Virus record (IMG/VR): IMGVR_UViG_2537561684_000007
Direction: 5' to 3' (one strand)
Length of the DNA: 15,142 bases
Source of the DNA: a virus
Lineage: Duplodnaviria; Heunggongvirae; Uroviricota; Caudoviricetes
A program made the position numbers and the translations under genes. Within the stretch, counting starts at the first letter, position 1. The number at the start of each line of letters is the position of its first letter. The notes under the pieces were generated by a model that made no database searches, was not told the origin of the DNA, and worked only from the letters and a program-made list of their open reading frames with translations. This document shows, in pieces, positions 528 to 15,142 of this stretch.

Positions 528-1562
528 TCAGCCGTTGTCAGTGTCCAGTGAGTAGTTTTTAAAGCGGATGACCTCCTGACCGAGCCAGCCGTTTATCTCG
601 CGGATCCTGTCCTGTAACGGGATAAGTTCATTGCGGACAAAGACCTTTGCCACTTTCTCAATATCACCCAGCGACCCGACGTTCTCCGGCTTGCCACCCA
701 TCAACTGAAAGGGGATGCGGTGCGCGTCCAGCAGGTCTGCGGCACTGGCTTTTTTGATATTAAAAAAATCGTCCTTCGTCGCCACTTCACTGAGCGGGAT
801 AATTTTAATGCCGTCGGCTTTTCCCTGTGGGGCATAGAGAAACAGGTTTTTAAAGTTGTTGCGGCCTTTCGACTTGACCATGTTTTCGCGAAGCATTTCG
901 ATATCGTTGCGGTCCTGCACGGCATCGGTGACGTACATGATGTATCCGGCATGTGCGCCGTTTTCGTAATACTTGCGGCGGAACAGCGTGGCCGATTCAT
1001 TCAGCCAGGCAGAGTTAAGGGCGCTGAGATATTCCGGCAGACCGTACAGCTCCTGATTAATATCCGGCTCCAGCAGGTGAAACACGGAGCCGGGCGCGAA
1101 AGGTGTCGGCTCGTTGAAGGACGGCACCCACCAGTAAACATCCTCTTCCACGCCACGGCGGGTATATTTTGCCGGTGAGGTTTCCAGTCTGATGACCTTA
1201 CCGGTGGTGCTGTATCGCTTTTCCAGAAACGCATTACCGAACACCAGAAAATCCAGCACAAAGCGGTTGAAATCCTGCTGGGAAAGCCACGGATGCGGGA
1301 TAAATGTCGAGGCCAGAATATTACGTTTGACGTAAATCGGTGAGCTGTGATGCACGGCAGCACGCAGGCTTTTTGCCAGACCGGTAAAGCTGACCGGTGG
1401 CTCATACCATCTGCCGTTACTGATGCACTCGACGTAATCCAGAATGTCACGGCGGTCGAGTACCGGCACCGGCTCACCAAAGGTGAATGTCTCCATTTTC
1501 GGGGCGCTGGCGGTCATTGTTTTTGCCGCAGGTTGCGGTGTTTTCCCTTTTTTCTTGCTCAT
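528..1562 (-). CDS. Q: portal vertex protein (P2 gpQ-like)
   Basis: Intact 344-aa ORF, the same length as P2 Q; translation matches recalled P2 Q; ATG overlaps the stop of the upstream terminase gene (TGATG). Confidence 0.93.
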   Translation of the reverse strand: MSKKKGKTPQPAAKTMTASAPKMETFTFGEPVPVLDRRDILDYVECISNGRWYEPPVSFTGLAKSLRAAVHHSSPIYVKRNILASTFIPHPWLSQQDFNRFVLDFLVFGNAFLEKRYSTTGKVIRLETSPAKYTRRGVEEDVYWWVPSFNEPTPFAPGSVFHLLEPDINQELYGLPEYLSALNSAWLNESATLFRRKYYENGAHAGYIMYVTDAVQDRNDIEMLRENMVKSKGRNNFKNLFLYAPQGKADGIKIIPLSEVATKDDFFNIKKASAADLLDAHRIPFQLMGGKPENVGSLGDIEKVAKVFVRNELIPLQDRIREINGWLGQEVIRFKNYSLDTDNG

Positions 1563-4417: not shown

Positions 4418-5491
4418 ATGCGCCAGGAAACCCGCTTTAAATTTAATGCCTACCTGTCCCGTGTTGCCGAACTGAACGGCATCGACGCCGGTGATGTGTC
4501 GAAAAAATTCACCGTTGAACCGTCGGTCACCCAGACCCTGATGAACACCATGCAGGAGTCCTCTGACTTTCTGACCCGCATCAACATTGTGCCGGTCAGC
4601 GAAATGAAAGGGGAAAAAATTGGTATCGGTGTCACCGGCTCCATCGCCAGCACCACCGACACCGCCGGTGGCACCGAGCGTCAGCCGAAGGACTTCTCGA
4701 AGCTGGCGTCTAACAAGTACGAATGCGACCAGATTAACTTCGATTTTTATATCCGCTACAAAACGCTTGACCTGTGGGCGCGTTATCAGGATTTCCAGCT
4801 CCGTATCCGTAACGCCATTATCAAACGCCAGTCCCTTGATTTCATCATGGCCGGTTTTAACGGCGTGAAGCGTGCCGAAACCTCTGACCGCAGCAGCAAT
4901 CCGATGCTACAGGATGTGGCGGTCGGCTGGCTGCAGAAATACCGCAATGAAGCCCCGGCGCGCGTGATGAGCAAGGTCACTGACGAGGAAGGGCACACGA
5001 CCTCTGAGGTCATCCGCGTGGGTAAGGGCGGTGATTATGCCAGCCTCGATGCACTGGTGATGGATGCGACCAACAACCTGATTGAGCCGTGGTATCAGGA
5101 AGACCCTGACCTTGTGGTGATTGTGGGGCGTCAGCTACTGGCGGACAAGTATTTCCCCATCGTTAACAAGGAGCAGGACAACAGCGAGATGCTGGCCGCT
5201 GACGTTATCATCAGCCAGAAACGCATCGGCAACCTGCCGGCGGTACGCGTCCCGTACTTCCCGGCGGATGCGATGCTCATCACGAAGCTGGAAAACCTGT
5301 CCATCTACTACATGGATGACAGCCATCGCCGCGTGATTGAGGAAAACCCGAAACTCGACCGCGTGGAGAACTACGAGTCAATGAACATTGATTACGTGGT
5401 GGAGGACTACGCCGCCGGTTGTCTGGTGGAAAAAATTAAGGTCGGTGATTTCTCCACACCGGCTAAGGCGACCGCAGAGCCGGGAGCGTAA
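4418..5491 (+). CDS. N: major capsid protein (P2 gpN-like)
   Basis: Intact 357-aa ORF with AGGA upstream; length and sequence match recalled P2 N. Confidence 0.93.
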   Translation: MRQETRFKFNAYLSRVAELNGIDAGDVSKKFTVEPSVTQTLMNTMQESSDFLTRINIVPVSEMKGEKIGIGVTGSIASTTDTAGGTERQPKDFSKLASNKYECDQINFDFYIRYKTLDLWARYQDFQLRIRNAIIKRQSLDFIMAGFNGVKRAETSDRSSNPMLQDVAVGWLQKYRNEAPARVMSKVTDEEGHTTSEVIRVGKGGDYASLDALVMDATNNLIEPWYQEDPDLVVIVGRQLLADKYFPIVNKEQDNSEMLAADVIISQKRIGNLPAVRVPYFPADAMLITKLENLSIYYMDDSHRRVIEENPKLDRVENYESMNIDYVVEDYAAGCLVEKIKVGDFSTPAKATAEPGA

Positions 5492-8241: not shown

Positions 8242-8680
8242 TGATTGTGCTGGTGTGTTGTTATCCTGGCGGTGGCGGCTGTTTCTGGGAACAAAAAGCC
8301 AGCCTGCGCGCCTCGCTGGACAGGGCGAACAAGTCGCCAGCGGGCAGCAGACGACCATCACCATGCTGAAAAATCAGCTTCATGTTGCCCTCACCAGGGC
8401 AGACAAAAACGAGTGGCGCAGGTGGCACTGCGTCAGGAACTGGAAACGCCGCGAAGCGTGAAGCCAGCGCGAGAAAACCATCACGAGTTACTAATGAAAA
8501 CGAGATTTCCGCCGCTGGTATGGCGCTGACCTGCCTGATGCTGTGCGCCGGTTGCACCAGCGTCCGGCCTGCACCGACGCCAGTGATTGTCGCCAACGCC
8601 TGCCCGAAAGTGAGTCTTTGCCCGATGCCGGGCAGGACCCAGACGAACGGCGATTTAAGTGCCGATATCCGGCAGCTTGA
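8229..8680 (+). pseudogene. lysB: Rz-like i-spanin LysB; several frameshifts as read, 3' end uncertain
   Basis: ATG 8229 (MSKLMIVLV...); recognisable segments ASLRASLDRAN, ASGQQTTITMLKNQLHVALTRADKNE, VALRQELE, AAKREASARK are spread over three frames (ORFs 8213..8461, 8245..8529, 8382..8780). End coordinate is inferred from the expected ~141-aa length and the frame relationship to lysC. Confidence 0.55.
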
Positions 8681-8780
8681 GAACGCGCTGGCGCGCTGTG
8701 CCAGCCAGGTAAAAATGATTAAACACTGTCAGGACGAAAACGATGCTCAAACCCGACAGCCTGCGCAGGGCGCTGACTGA
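8520..8780 (+). CDS. lysC: Rz1-like o-spanin lipoprotein LysC (overlaps the 3' part of lysB in another frame)
   Basis: ATG 8520; MALTCLMLCAGC... has a lipobox (LCAGC) followed by a Pro-rich stretch (SVRPAPTPVIVANACPKVSLCPMPG); lies within ORF 8382..8780. Confidence 0.5.
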   Translation: MALTCLMLCAGCTSVRPAPTPVIVANACPKVSLCPMPGRTQTNGDLSADIRQLENALARCASQVKMIKHCQDENDAQTRQPAQGAD

Positions 8781-9199
8781 TGCCGTCACGGTGCTGAAAA
8801 CACCGAATGCTGCGGATATTCGTGGATACGGGAGTATTGCCTCCACCTGGCGCGTCGTTGTCATTCGAAAAGCGTTACACGCTCAATGTCATTGTGACCG
8901 ACTTTACCGGTGATTTTGACCTGCTCATCGTGCCGGTGCTGGCGTGGCTGCGGGTAAATCAGCCCGACATCATGACCACCGACGAGGCAGAAAAAGGGCT
9001 TCACGTTTTATGCAGACATCAACAATGACAGCAGCTTTGATATCAGATCAGCCTGATGCTGACCGAGCGCACGCTGGTCAGTGAGGTGGACGGCGCGCTG
9101 CATGTGAAGAATATCCCGGAACCTCCGCCGCCGGAGCCGGTCACCCGCCCGATGGAGCTGTATATCAATGGCGAACTCGTGAGTAAGTGGGATGAATGA
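8743..9199 (+). pseudogene. R: tail completion protein (P2 gpR-like); frameshifted as read
   Basis: ATG 8743 with AGGA upstream (MLKPDSLRRALTDAVTVLK...). Middle part is in ORF 8807..9028 (SFEKRYTLNVIVTDFTGDFDLLIVPVLAWLR); C-terminus (...PMELYINGELVSKWDE) ends TGA 9197..9199, overlapping the S start. Confidence 0.75.
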
Positions 9200-9644: not shown

Positions 9645-9710
9645 TTGTGCCATTCCCGACACCTCATCGTTACATTGCCGCCGGTATGACCCGGCGGCAT
9701 CCTTCCCGTT
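9645..9710 (+). promoter_or_regulatory. S-V intergenic region; expected position of the late promoter for the V-W-J-I-H-G operon
   Basis: 66-bp gap. Contains a partial dyad TGT-N10-ACA (9646..9661) and an 8-bp GC hairpin GCCGCCGG/CCGGCGGC (9677..9698). In P2 a late promoter lies in front of V. Confidence 0.3.
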
Positions 9711-10333
9711 ATGAACACTCTCGCAAATATCCAGGAACTCGCGCGCGCACTGCGCAACATGATCCGCACCGGCCTTGTCGTCGAAACCAACCTTAAAGCC
9801 GGTCGCTGCCGTGTGCAGACCGGCGGCATGTGCACCGACTGGCTTCAGTGGCTGACTCGTGCCGGGCGTTCGCGCACTGGTGGGCACCTTCCGTGGGGGA
9901 CAGGTGCTGATTCTGGCCGTGGGCGGTGAACTGACACGGCGTTCGTTCTGCCGGGGATTTATTCCGGGATAACCCCGCGCCGTCTGCGTCGGCGGATGCC
10001 CTGCATATCCGTTTCCCTGACGGGGCGGTGATTGATATGAACCGAAACCAGCGCACTCACGGTAAGCGGAATTAAAACGGCCAGCGTGACGGCTTCTGAT
10101 TCTGTTACTGCCACGGTGCCGGTGGTCAGGTGAAAGCATCAACCCGCGTACCCTGGACACACCGGAGGTGGTTGCACCAACAGGCTGATTACGGCACGCT
10201 GGAAGTGCAGAAGGGCGGGACGATGCGCGGCAACATTGAACACACCGGCGGTGAACTCTCATCAAACGGTAAGGTACTGCATACCCATAAACACCCCGGC
10301 GACAGCGGCGGCACAACCGGGAGCCCTCTATGA
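9711..10333 (+). pseudogene. V: baseplate spike/assembly protein (P2 gpV-like); frameshifted as read
   Basis: N-terminus in ORF 9711..9929 (MNTLANIQELARALRNMIRTGLVVETNLKAGRCRVQTGGMCTDWLQWLTRAGRSRT), C-terminus in ORF 10130..10333 (...TLEVQKGGTMRGNIEHTGGELSSNGKVLHTHKHPGDSGGTTGSPL); the middle is out of frame. Confidence 0.8.
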
Positions 10334-10681: not shown

Positions 10682-11581
10682 ATGCCGATTATCGACCTGA
10701 ACCAGCTACCCGCACCGGATGTGGTCGAGGAGCTGGACTTTGAAACCATTCTTGCCGAACGCAAGGCGACACTGATTTCTCTTTACCCGGAAGACCAGCA
10801 GGAGGCGGTCGCCCGTACCCTGACGCTGGAATCTGAGCCTCTCGCCAAACTGCTGGAGGAAAATGCTTATCGTGAGCTTATCTGGCGTCAGCGTGTGAAT
10901 GAGGCCGCACGGGCGGTGATGCTGGCCTGTGCCGCCGGTAATGACCTTGATGTGATTGGTGCCAATTACAACACCACGCGCCTGATTATTACTCCGGCAG
11001 ATGATTCGACCATCCGCCGACACCGGCAGTGATGGAATCTGACACGATTATCGTCTGCGTATTCAGCAGGCGTTTGAGGGCTTAAGCGTCGCCGGGTCGG
11101 TGGGTGCTTATCAGTATCATGGTCGCAGTGCCGACGGGCGTGTCGCGGATATTCTGTACCAGTCCGTCTCCGGCCTGCGTCACCATCTCGTGCTGTCACG
11201 TGAAAATAACGGTGTGCATCCGAAGACTGCTGGCGGGTGCGTAACGCCCTTAATGGCGAGGACGTCAGGCCGGTGGCCGACCGCGTGACCGTGCAGTCTG
11301 CCGCCATTGTTGAATACCAGATAAACGCCACGCTTTACCTTTACCCTGGTCCCGAAAGCGAACCCATCCGCGCTGCCGCCGTGAAAAAACTGGAAGCGTA
11401 TATCACGGCACAGCACCGGCTGGGGCGTGACATCCGTCTGTCTGCCATTTATGCCGCTTTGCATGTGGAAGGTGTGCAGCGTGTCGAACTGGCTGCACCA
11501 CTGGCCGACATCGTGCTCAACAGTACGCAGGCGTCTTTCTGTACCGAATACCGCGTCGTGACCGGAGGCTCGGATGAGTGA
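10682..11581 (+). pseudogene. J: baseplate protein (P2 gpJ-like); several frameshifts as read
   Basis: N-terminus in ORF 10682..11032 (MPIIDLNQLPAPDVVEELDFETILAERKATLISLYPEDQQEAVARTLTLESEPLAKLLEENAYRELIWRQRVNEAARAVMLACAAGNDLDVIGANYNTTRLIITPADDSTI), middle fragment in ORF 11100..11288, C-terminus in ORF 11237..11581. Confidence 0.8.
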
Positions 11582-12114: not shown

Positions 12115-14400
12115 ATGAGCACAAAATTCAGAACCGTTATCACCACTGCCGGTGCAGCAAAGCTGGCAGCGGCAACCGCACCGGGAGGGCGGAAGGTCAA
12201 TATTACCACGATGGCCGTCGGGGATGGCGGTGGTAAATTGCCTGTCCCGGATGCCGGACAGACCGGGCTTATCCACGAAGTCTGGCGACATGCGCTGAAC
12301 AAAATCAGCCAGGACAAACGAAACAGTAATTATATTATCGCAGAGCTGGTTATTCCGCCGGAGGTGGGCGGTTTCTGGATGCGTGACTTGGCCTGTACGA
12401 TGATGCGGGAACTAATTGCCGTGGCGAACATGGCCGAAAGTTATAAGCCAGCCTTGCCGAAGGCTCAGGGCGTTCGCAGACCTGCGCATGGTCATCATCG
12501 TCAGCAGTGTGGCCTCAGTGGGCTGACCATTGACACCACAACGGTGATGGCACGCAGGATTACGTTGATGACAAAATTGCAGACATGAACAGTCACGACG
12601 TCACCCGACGCCTCGCTGACCGCAAAAGGTTTTACTCAGTTAAGCATGCGACCAACAGCACGTCTGAAACACTGGCCGCAACGCCGAAAGCGGTAAAGGC
12701 CGCGTATGACTTGCTAACGGGAAATAACGCCAGGAGCCACCAAGCGCGAAAAGGCCTTGTCCAGCTCAGTAGGCCACCAACAGCACGTCTGAAACGCTGC
12801 GCAACCCAAAGCGGTAAAGGCAGCATATGACCTGCTAACGGGAAATAACGCACAGGAGCCACCACGCGCGAAAAGGTCTTGTCCAGCTCAGTAGCGCACC
12901 AACAGCGATTCTGAAACGCTTGCGGCAACGCCAAAGGCGGTTAAGACAGCGTATGACCTTGCTAACGGGAAATACACTGCACAGGAGCCACCACGCGCGA
13001 AAGGTCTTGTCAGCTCAGTAGCGCCACCAACAGGATTCTGAAACGCTGGCGCAACATCAAAAGCGGTGAAGTCTGCCTATGACAATGCTGAAAAACGTCT
13101 TCAGAAAGATCAGAACGGTGCGGATATTCCGGGAAAGGATACCTTCACGAAAAATATCGGTGCCTGTCGTGCTTATAGCGGCGCTTTGAGCACTGAAGCC
13201 GGAAACTGGACAACCGCTCAGTTTATTGAATGGCTGGATTCCCGTGGTGCATTTAATCATCCGTACTGGATGTGCAAAGGCTCCTGGTCATATGCAAATA
13301 ACAAAATCATTACGGATACCGGATGTGGTGATATCCACCTGGCTGGTTGTGTCGTCGAGGTCATGGGAACTAAATCTGCAATCACTATCCGAGTGACCAC
13401 GCCGACAACATCAAGCGGTGGCGGTACAACCAGCGCGCAATTCACTTACATTAATCATGGGGACGGCTACTCCCCCGGCTGGCGTCGTGACTGGAATCGT
13501 CAGGGCGACGCAATGACCGGAACGATTAATCAGGATGGCGGAAGCCAGAATGCCTATATGTCTACGGCCTTATGTTCAGGCACCAGAGGCGGCAAAAAAT
13601 ATCTCAGAAAGTTTCGTGGTGGAGAAGGAGACACTATCTGGCATGAAACAGTACAGGGCGGGGTAATTCGCTGGGCGACAGGAAACTATGACGCTCAGGA
13701 AGAATTATCACTCAGCTCCGCTTATGGTCTCCGTTCAAGAGGTGAGATTACATCACTCAGTGCTAATGGTCTGCGCATTGCTTATGGCAATTATGGATTC
13801 TTTATCAGGAATGATGGCGGCAGCACATATTTAATGCTGACGGCCTCTGGCGATAAATTTGGGACATGGAACGGTTTAAGGCCGCTGACTATCAATAACG
13901 CTAATGGCGGAGTATCAATGGGGCATGGCCTGAGTGTTACTGGTGATATTGCCTCAAGTACCAAAGTACGTGCCGGTAGCGGGAAAAAATTCACGGTCAG
14001 CAGCAGTAATACATCCACGAAGGAAGCCGCATTCAATTTGTGGGGAAACTCAAGTCGTCCGGTGGTGGCTGAATTAGGTGATGATGCAGGCTGGCATTTT
14101 TACAGTCAGAGAAATACAGATAACAGCATCACTTTTGCTGTTAACGGGCAGGTATCACCATCTAACTATGGCAACTTTGATTCACGCTATGTCCGGGATA
14201 TCCGGCTTGGTGGTGCTGCCACATACAAACCTGCGAACAATGGCATGACATGGACACATCAGGCACCGTCCGGGTGTGTATATTCCGGCATTATTGTTCA
14301 GGATACCGGCTCAAACTCTGCCGATAACATTGGTGGCATATATTACAGACCGGTGCAGAAATACATTAACGGGACATGGTATAACGTGGCGCAGGTATAA
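12115..14400 (+). pseudogene. H: tail fibre protein (P2 gpH-like), mosaic; 5' third frameshifted as read, 3' 444 codons intact
   Basis: N-terminus in ORF 12115..12588 (MSTKFRTVITTAGAAKLAAATAPGGRKVNITTMAVGDGGGKLPVPDAGQTGLIHEVWRHALNKISQDKRNSNYIIAELVIPPEVGGFWMR...). 12628..13060 is a tandem repeat block with frame-breaking length differences. ORF 13066..14400 is intact and ends ...YRPVQKYINGTWYNVAQV. Total ~2.29 kb, longer than the ~2.0 kb expected for P2 H. Confidence 0.8.
12628..13060 (+). repeat. about 3.5 tandem copies of a ~125-nt coding repeat inside H (SSATNSTSETLAATPKAVKAAYDL-type tail fibre repeat)
   Basis: Unit starts at roughly 12628, 12753, 12875 and 13003 (spacings 125, 122, 128 nt); each unit contains variants of ACCAACAGCACGTCTGAAAC...GCGGTAAAGGC...TATGAC. 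Confidence 0.8.
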
Positions 14401-14403
14401 TTT

Positions 14404-14931
14404 ATGCAGCATTTGATAAATATAACGGTGGGTAATCCAAAAACGGTTGAACAATATCAATTGACAAAGGATTTTGATGTTGTCTGGTTTTTTACAGAAG
14501 ATGGTAAGAACTGGTACGAAGAACAAAAGTATTTTGCTGATGACACGATAAAAATAGCGTACGACAAAGATAATATCATCCGCTATGTGGAAAAGGATGT
14601 GACAGCTATCAGACCGGATGGATTAAGTGTGGTTGAAGTGGCGGATATTACTGCTAACCGACGGGCGGATATTTCAGGGGGCTGGATGTTTAAGGACGGC
14701 AAAGTGATTAAACGCATTTATACGGCAGATGAATTGCGGCGGCAGGCAGAAATTCGGAAAGTCAGACTTCTTGCAGATGCTGAATCCGTGATTTTGCCGC
14801 TGGAGCGCGCTGTCAGGCTGAACATGGCAACAGATGAGGAGCGTAGCCGACTGGAAGCATGGGAGCGTTACAGCGTTCTGGTCAGTCGTGTGGATCCTGC
14901 AAATCCTGAATGGCCGGAAATGCCGCAATAA
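14404..14931 (+). CDS. G: tail fibre assembly chaperone (P2 gpG/Tfa-like)
   Basis: Intact 175-aa ORF directly after H; AT-rich like the 3' end of H. Confidence 0.88.
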
Positions 14932-14965
14932 GTTGTATGAGTTCTGGTGTGAGCTTACACATCTA

Positions 14966-15007
14966 TGGCACAGAGTAAAGCCTAATCTGACAGTTCGCTC
15001 TGTGCCA
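14966..15007. repeat. perfect 10-bp inverted repeat TGGCACAGAG-N22-CTCTGTGCCA just downstream of G
   Basis: Arms at 14966..14975 and 14998..15007; no T tract follows, so not a typical intrinsic terminator. Lies in the ~38% GC non-coding tail of the window. Confidence 0.6.
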
Positions 15008-15142
15008 GAAACAGACGTCACTTATATATTTCTGTATTAATCAATGAGGAAAGATTCAATTCTCTATAATGGAGGTTGCGTCCACTGTTTTCTCTAAGCA
15101 GACCAAGTTCCCTTAACGAAAAATTTAGTGTCAGAAACTAAT

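Follow-up and report, generated by a model that had tools for sequence, protein, structure and literature searches.

The stretch of DNA considered here (IMG/VR record IMGVR_UViG_2537561684_000007; 15,142 nt, hereafter the window) represents the late region of a phage or prophage of the P2-like type (Peduovirus), extending from the portal gene Q to the tail fiber assembly gene G and collinear in gene order with the late genes of P2-like phages. In DNA it shares 96-99% identity with IMG/VR contigs and with prophages from several strains of E. coli, none of which it matches exactly. Gene G (14404-14931, plus strand), taken from the list of open reading frames (ORFs) and 98-99% identical in protein sequence to annotated G of P2-like phages and prophages, is the final gene of the V-W-J-I-H-G late operon and ends with a TAA stop at 14929-14931. 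The 211 bp that remain between this stop and the end of the window (14932-15142) are the subject of this report. Our best explanation of the whole, in which we have good confidence, is that they form the left border of the accessory-gene hotspot located between G and the tail sheath gene FI (the G-FI, or Z/fun, site) of a P2-like prophage. The GC content of the segment is 38.4% versus 55.1% for the window, and the longest frame open at the right edge on either strand is 46 nt, both in agreement with a first-pass annotation of the raw sequence, which had noticed ~38% GC after the G stop and no ORF leaving the window on either strand.

The DNA beyond the window is not directly readable in this genome, and what follows G is seen in its relatives, for which 5,426 complete E. 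coli genomes were searched with the 211-bp segment and 88 loci were fetched. Eight other sequences, six of them complete E. coli genomes and two IMG/VR contigs, contain the segment with 100% identity, and all of them run on into the same cargo DNA. Seven of the eight reach FI, whose start lies 1,719-1,720 nt after the G stop; the eighth, a contig, breaks off within the cargo gene. In the seven, the G-FI interval has only one credible gene, a minus-strand ORF of 327 aa, and the order after G is this gene on the opposite strand, the inverted partner of a boundary repeat, a t45-like terminator, the PF promoter region and FI. The FI-side boundary of the hotspot, made up of the PF promoter and the tail sheath gene, is therefore present in these seven sequences, and its place is beyond the window. 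The expectation of the first-pass annotation that cargo and not the sheath gene comes after G is thus supported by the seven identical relatives, from whose sequences the same 327-aa gene almost certainly stands just past the window in this genome as well.

A broader comparison was made with 69 complete G-FI intervals, all from phages whose G has an identity of 93% or more, referred to below as close relatives. These intervals hold 36 unrelated cargo classes, measure 1,077-3,661 nt and have a GC content of 31-42%, which means that the site combines the two marks of a hotspot, a content that varies among collinear relatives and a low GC (32.5% for 15020-15142 of the window). A sheath gene starting within a few hundred bp of G with no gene in between, an arrangement that the first-pass annotation had regarded as incompatible with a cargo insertion, is found in none of the 69, the shortest interval being the one of 1,077 nt. 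An empty site, with the sheath gene within 128 nt of the tail fiber assembly gene and the terminator t45 between them, was met only in phage 186, which belongs to a different genus. Scanning with defense models, which had also been proposed, gives indirect support for phage resistance as the trait conferred by cargo at this site: the cargo of the identical relatives has no PADLOC match, and six of ten sampled alternative cargo proteins at the site match defense models (fused PARIS AriAB at 2e-187, DarT at 8e-53, PDC-S06 at 1e-254, PDC-S71 at 1e-218, TIR and LmuA/HamA-like). The own cargo of P2 at G-FI is fun(Z). The site was described as the second defense-enriched locus, or hotspot, of P2 (Vassallo 2022, PMC9519451) and as the Z/fun hotspot (Egorov 2024, bioRxiv 10.1101/2024.10.15.618418), so its identification as the second variable cargo site of P2 agrees both with these studies and with the diversity of cargo in the close relatives. 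As the hotspot is already known, the interpretation is not new, and its confirmation mainly shows that such a border, read from raw sequence, is reliably recognizable.

The segment itself consists of two parts that differ in GC content, 46.6% for 14932-15019 versus 32.5% for the remainder. The start of the 211 bp is matched in 593 of the 5,426 E. coli genomes, its full length in six only, and in the 88 fetched loci, those with the same cargo excepted, homology breaks off 73-91 nt after the G stop, that is, at 15004-15022 of the window. Since homology to loci with other cargo ends there, 14932-15019 belongs to the phage backbone and 15020-15142 is tied to one cargo. The first 88 nt are accordingly a conserved backbone border of the hotspot, a delimitation to which the alignment of the 36 cargo classes also contributes. 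They are followed by an AT-rich cargo-linked spacer (15020-15123), which has no credible ORF and is common only to the eight identical loci and a rearranged Morganella P2-like remnant. The end of the window (15124-15142, plus strand) is a degenerate second copy of the left boundary repeat (TTTAGTGTCAGAAACTAAT..., truncated by the window end), recognized from a direct repeat, from the start of homology and from junction sequences. The direct repeat, GTGCCAGAAAC (15002) and GTGTCAGAAAC (15128), exposes this copy; homology to the comparison loci L098 and L100 begins at positions 12197 and 12194 of comparison locus L001, which correspond to 15128 and 15125 of the window; and it is within 15124-15142 that DNA homology to the copies of this cassette from Klebsiella and from a lambdoid prophage of Enterobacter sets in. 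The L100 copy of the degenerate repeat has 5 mismatches to the core of the left boundary repeat. The TATAAT-like hexamer that had been noticed near 15063 does exist, at 15065-15070 in the cargo-linked spacer, but the promoter scan found no -35 partner for it and the hexamer occurs on one strand or the other in 28% of shuffles of the 211 bp; as a promoter it is at chance level and was rejected.

The cargo gene is located at L001 12365-13348 on the minus strand, and its end lies, in the frame of the window, ~154 nt past the last base. It starts with GTG, in agreement with the MKRKF start of its homologues, has a GAGGA ribosome-binding site 9 nt upstream and is followed by a hairpin and T-run terminator (L001 12286-12258); it would be expressed from the prophage. 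A promoter-like sequence, TTGACA-16-TAGTAT (10/12), is present on the plus strand at L001 12213-12240, 1-28 nt past the window end, oriented antisense to the cargo gene and reading into its 3' end; the Enterobacter copy of the cassette preserves this sequence, and the Klebsiella copy does so in part.

The protein has no significant Pfam, NCBIfam or PADLOC family match, its only PHROGs match is the unannotated phrog_15714, and a literature text search on protein accessions and the PHROG id returned no mention. It belongs to a family of 139 homologue clusters of ~330 aa, none with a Pfam domain, which come from Enterobacterales, Pseudomonas, Xanthomonas, Acinetobacter and metagenomes. Y146, G148, R162, H166, E236 and N248 are invariant among 55 aligned members with identities as low as 29%, and the alignment of the domain shows the same. 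YIG...R...H...E...N is the order of residues in GIY-YIG nucleases, and the catalytic set of these enzymes (Tyr of YIG, Arg, His/Tyr, Glu and Asn, in canonical order) is found here as Y146, R162, H166, E236 and N248. A PDB sequence search with E values up to 10 reaches only UvrC GIY-YIG domains and R.Eco29kI, the best match being to UvrC with a profile of the central domain (E 0.015). Weak Pfam matches within the family are to RE_Eco29kI (16 of the 55 members, best E 0.0077) and to GIY_YIG_2 (4 of 55, best E 0.015), all of them under the cut-offs. In the AlphaFold model (predicted local distance difference test score, pLDDT, 82; predicted template modeling score, pTM, 0.82) the central domain has a predicted GIY-YIG-like alpha/beta fold; a whole-chain Foldseek search against the PDB gave no match at E <=0.001. 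We read three domains in the cargo protein, a beta-rich one at the N-terminus, a central GIY-YIG nuclease (approximately residues 136-258) and a small one at the C-terminus.

Genes of this family recur in cargo sites. The cargo gene itself is present in 6 of the 5,426 E. coli genomes, and tblastn of the protein against 50,697 phage records gave no match. An Enterobacter lambdoid prophage has a relative immediately behind its O/P replication genes, and a Citrobacter P4-like satellite has one next to an SMC/MComp1 system; others are found in an integrative and conjugative element of P. syringae, next to an OLD-like ATPase in Serratia, next to umuC-like genes in Klebsiella, and in the rearranged Morganella P2-like remnant. 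A compact ~330-aa single-gene family with an intact GIY-YIG catalytic set, no match in the defense database and a presence in at least five kinds of mobile-element cargo sites makes a reasonable candidate for a new anti-phage nuclease acting as a single protein. The cargo gene is probably an anti-phage defense gene, by analogy with CMoRE/PD-T4-3 a single-protein nuclease, whose flanking domains would recognize the target and whose GIY-YIG domain would cut it; the cargo, which almost certainly follows in this genome, is an uncharacterized new member of the single-gene nuclease cargoes. In one comparison locus (L004, E. coli ETEC4088, 4720-5335) the prophage has lost DNA from within FI to within D, yet the cargo gene and ogr are kept; a defective prophage thus retains the accessory gene.

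The backbone border ends in a repeat of ~36 nt. A repeat search on the full interval found its left copy, IR-L (AATCTGACAGTTCGCTCTGTGCCAGAAACAGACGTC), at 14984-15019 (plus strand) and its inverted partner, IR-R, after the cargo and beyond the window, at L001 13501-13536; in L001 the two arms span 35 nt, are 77% complementary and lie 1,414 nt apart. In the consensus of 37 distinct arm pairs ~32 of 36 positions are complementary, and 75.5% of the cells pair versus 27-39% when the partner is slid. The left consensus is AATCTGACAGTCCGCTCTGTGCCAGGAGCGGACGTT, after which the cargo begins, and the right consensus, with which the cargo ends, is AACGTCCGCTCCTCGCTCAAAGCAGACTGTCAGATT; in addition, each copy is able to fold locally (GTCCGCT-N10-AGCGGAC). 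At 5 mismatches or fewer the repeat is found on the left in 33 and on the right in 32 of the 36 cargo classes, with ~0.06 chance matches expected over 78 kb. It was not found elsewhere in the window, other variable sites included, and phage 186, where the site is empty, has no boundary repeat. A search of the whole G-FI interval against Rfam gave nothing credible. The exchange of cargo cassettes may take place at junctions marked by these repeats.

Several points weigh against the account given so far. The cargo gene is beyond the window, and its presence in this genome is argued from the identity of 123 cargo-linked bases. In the protein, the first tyrosine of GIY is not confidently placed (Y142, four residues upstream, varies, and Y102 is near-invariant but distant), every match to a GIY-YIG model is below the curated threshold, so that no curated profile is matched significantly, and the PADLOC models, as said, do not match. 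The gene is a single AT-rich one, patchy in its distribution and present in several unrelated mobile elements. As for the boundary repeats, neither their long-range pairing nor that of the local hairpins shows covariation beyond shuffles, no cargo was found in both orientations (no minus-strand matches among the cargo regions of the 69 intervals), and no recombinase or integrase was seen among the large ORFs listed per interval, up to four per class. Ordinary homologous recombination within the flanking genes G and FI could swap the cargo with no need of repeats. Finally, in comparison locus L058 (G-FI interval 1031-1283) the final 178 nt of G and the left flank are repeated internally, between two cargo genes, an array made by duplication in the manner of illegitimate or homologous exchange; this is the only exception to the absence of cargo segments common to different classes.

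The points that concern the repeats all speak for an explanation in which the ~36-nt repeats are relics without function, left for instance by an old palindrome or duplication, and exchange takes place only by homologous recombination in G and FI. A 2026 Nucleic Acids Research (NAR) survey of the P2 hotspots, which left the mechanism of exchange open, likewise favored recombination. Against relics stands the distribution of the repeat. Extra internal copies between cargo genes occur in 6 of the 10 classes with at least two large ORFs and in 0 of the 26 others (Fisher ~1e-4), with ~0.06 chance matches expected over the whole data set. Homology of the cassette with its Klebsiella and lambdoid prophage copies ends inside the repeats, one of the breakpoints being at 15125-15128 of the window. 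Both repeats are kept in a Yersinia phage in which G is only 80% identical, and the duplication in L058 ends exactly at the repeat core CTCTGTGCC. We regard the relic explanation as a real possibility, somewhat short of an even chance.

The more far-reaching proposal is that G-FI of Peduovirus is a cassette-array site, in which inverted, hairpin-forming ~36-nt repeats with the core GTCCGCT-N10-AGCGGAC bracket each independent cargo unit, travel with the cassettes into unrelated prophages and are the substrates of a recombination activity, possibly encoded by the host or the phage; 14984-15019 would be one such site, and the GIY-YIG protein would be one cassette and a new defense family. Taken as a whole this proposal is rather unlikely in our judgment. 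If true, it would give a mechanism for the fast swapping of defense genes that recent surveys have left unexplained, and repeats that part cassettes and mark breakpoints would offer a concrete handle on cargo exchange at the P2 hotspot. An invertible segment of the Gin/Cin/Hin type was considered and rejected, there being no cargo in both orientations among the 69 intervals; the boundary repeat is unlike the gix/cix-type site in sequence, and the phage 186 record annotates a Mu-like crossover site inside the tail fiber gene and not at G-FI. The inverted repeats are unmentioned in the major recent papers on the P2 hotspots. An older article (Nilsson et al. 2004, Molecular Biology and Evolution, MBE 21:1) reportedly names site-specific recombination at these loci in its title and may already describe the repeats, and we claim no novelty for them.

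With regard to function, the main rival is that the cargo gene encodes a free-standing selfish GIY-YIG homing endonuclease that cuts empty sites, for which the patchy occurrence of a single AT-rich gene in unrelated mobile elements would be natural. We find this improbable. The nuclease domain is central and not N-terminal, and protein-family scans detected no NUMOD or helix-turn-helix (HTH) DNA-binding module. The site is always occupied by other, mostly defense-type cargo, a situation different from the presence or absence of one gene, and the boundary repeats bracket every cargo type and not just this one. In Serratia, moreover, the relative is a fixed chromosomal gene next to the OLD-like ATPase. 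An anti-phage nuclease, as proposed above, remains our preferred reading of the cargo.

One more structure in the border has to be considered, the perfect 10-bp inverted repeat that the first-pass annotation reported at 14966-15007 (plus strand). Inverted-repeat search and folding confirm it, with arms at 14966-14975 (TGGCACAGAG) and 14998-15007 (CTCTGTGCCA) and a 22-nt loop; an inverted repeat this long arises in 3 of 1000 shuffles of the 211 bp, and the RNA fold has -18.4 kcal/mol (z = -2.5). The hairpin is kept in relatives just after the G stop, and shows no covariation beyond shuffles (covariation term -0.06). It belongs to the conserved backbone border and not to the cargo. Nor is it a canonical intrinsic (rho-independent) terminator, since the loop is 22 nt long, there is no U tract or T-run, and the terminator scan missed it. 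It is best regarded as belonging to the conserved border, where it overlaps the left boundary repeat, and as neither a terminator nor a cargo feature.

A terminator is instead found on the other side of the cargo. Upstream of FI, P2-like phages have a conserved hairpin with a T-run (L001 13598-13614), GCGGGCGAATTGCCCGC followed by the T-run, which is homologous to t45 of phage 186 (5059-5082 in comparison locus L104) and which every P2-like relative has beyond the cargo. This position after the cargo indicates that the ancestral operon terminator is downstream of the cargo and that the hairpin in the window is not that terminator; in P2-like phages, late transcripts from PV must probably run through the cargo before they terminate. 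The idea that the 211 bp are an ordinary intergenic spacer, in which the hairpin would serve the V-G late operon as its rho-independent terminator and be followed shortly by the sheath gene, can draw on a hairpin that is conserved just after the G stop and more stable than shuffles and on exactly this layout in phage 186, where t45 and the sheath gene follow within 128 nt, but it is extremely improbable, as the hairpin has no U tract and is unseen by the terminator scan, the t45 homologue is beyond the cargo, no interval of a close relative is shorter than 1,077 nt, and every sequence with the 211 bp contradicts it.

Other parts of the window deserve a short description. Alignment to an IMG/VR contig of 98.8% identity shows 32 deletion events in the window (30 of a single base, outside homopolymers) and 3 insertions, which are clustered at 8444-9046, 9856-10149, 11012-11157 and 12386-13416, with none after 13416. 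They break the reading frames of lysA, lysB, R and V, and M is also split relative to another relative; this points to read errors or to a decaying prophage. The spacer between S and V (9645-9710) is just 66 nt long, whereas P2 and the prophage of E. coli 05-3629 have a 786-nt minus-strand gene (orf30-like) there, which means that a third variable site is empty in the phage of the window. Beyond the end of the portal gene Q (528-1562, minus strand), positions 1-527 occupy the place of the first P2 hotspot (old/tin); the first ~330 nt are AT-rich by eye, there is no ORF of at least 60 aa, and the G-FI boundary repeat is absent. The tail fiber protein H (gene at 12115-14400) is ~80% identical, with length differences, to H of the prophages with the same cargo, while the flanking I and G are 98-99% identical, indicating that the receptor-binding gene is exchanged independently of the adjacent cargo.

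It is useful to compare these features with systems already known. For the cargo protein, the N-terminal domain of UvrC and R.Eco29kI are the best matches in sequence and in fold, and the EAxLIxxxxPxYN helix and the YIG...R...H spacing align; the scores, however, are sub-threshold, ~80 residues separate the R/H and E motifs in the cargo protein, and the domain context is another one. CMoRE/PD-T4-3, a single-protein GIY-YIG type IV restriction enzyme of E. coli (PMC12923530), is likewise the product of a single gene that joins a GIY-YIG domain to non-catalytic domains. Its GIY-YIG domain, however, is N-terminal with a GIYxY-YIG motif and its C-terminal domain is a sensor of 5-hydroxymethylcytosine (5hmC) (PMC12923530), whereas the nuclease domain of the cargo protein is central, is preceded by a beta-rich N-terminal domain and has no GIYxY motif; the PADLOC model of PD-T4-3 does not match the cargo protein.

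The organization of the site invites comparison with the attC cassettes of integrons, which are also promoter-independent modular units with imperfect hairpin-forming repeats between them, arrayed at one fixed site. An attC array was rejected, since the junctions have no RYYYAAC / GTTRRRY cores and no integrase is found among the listed large ORFs; neither intI nor attI was seen in the intervals, the cassettes here are in both orientations with their own promoters and terminators, and the repeats bracket each unit in inverted orientation. The t45/pJ region of phage 186 is similar in having the homologous hairpin and T-run upstream of FI, then an activator site and a late promoter; there, t45 comes directly after the tail fiber assembly gene at an empty site, whereas ~1.6 kb of border, cargo and repeat intervene in the relatives of the window. 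The remaining comparison is with the published Z/fun hotspot of P2, of which the site is an instance. Although the cargo here is neither fun(Z) nor any PADLOC system, is rare among the complete E. coli genomes (6/5,426) and is absent from the phage records (0/50,697), the position directly between G and the tail sheath gene FI is the same, as is an AT-rich content, often on the opposite strand, which varies among collinear phages and in relatives includes known defense genes.
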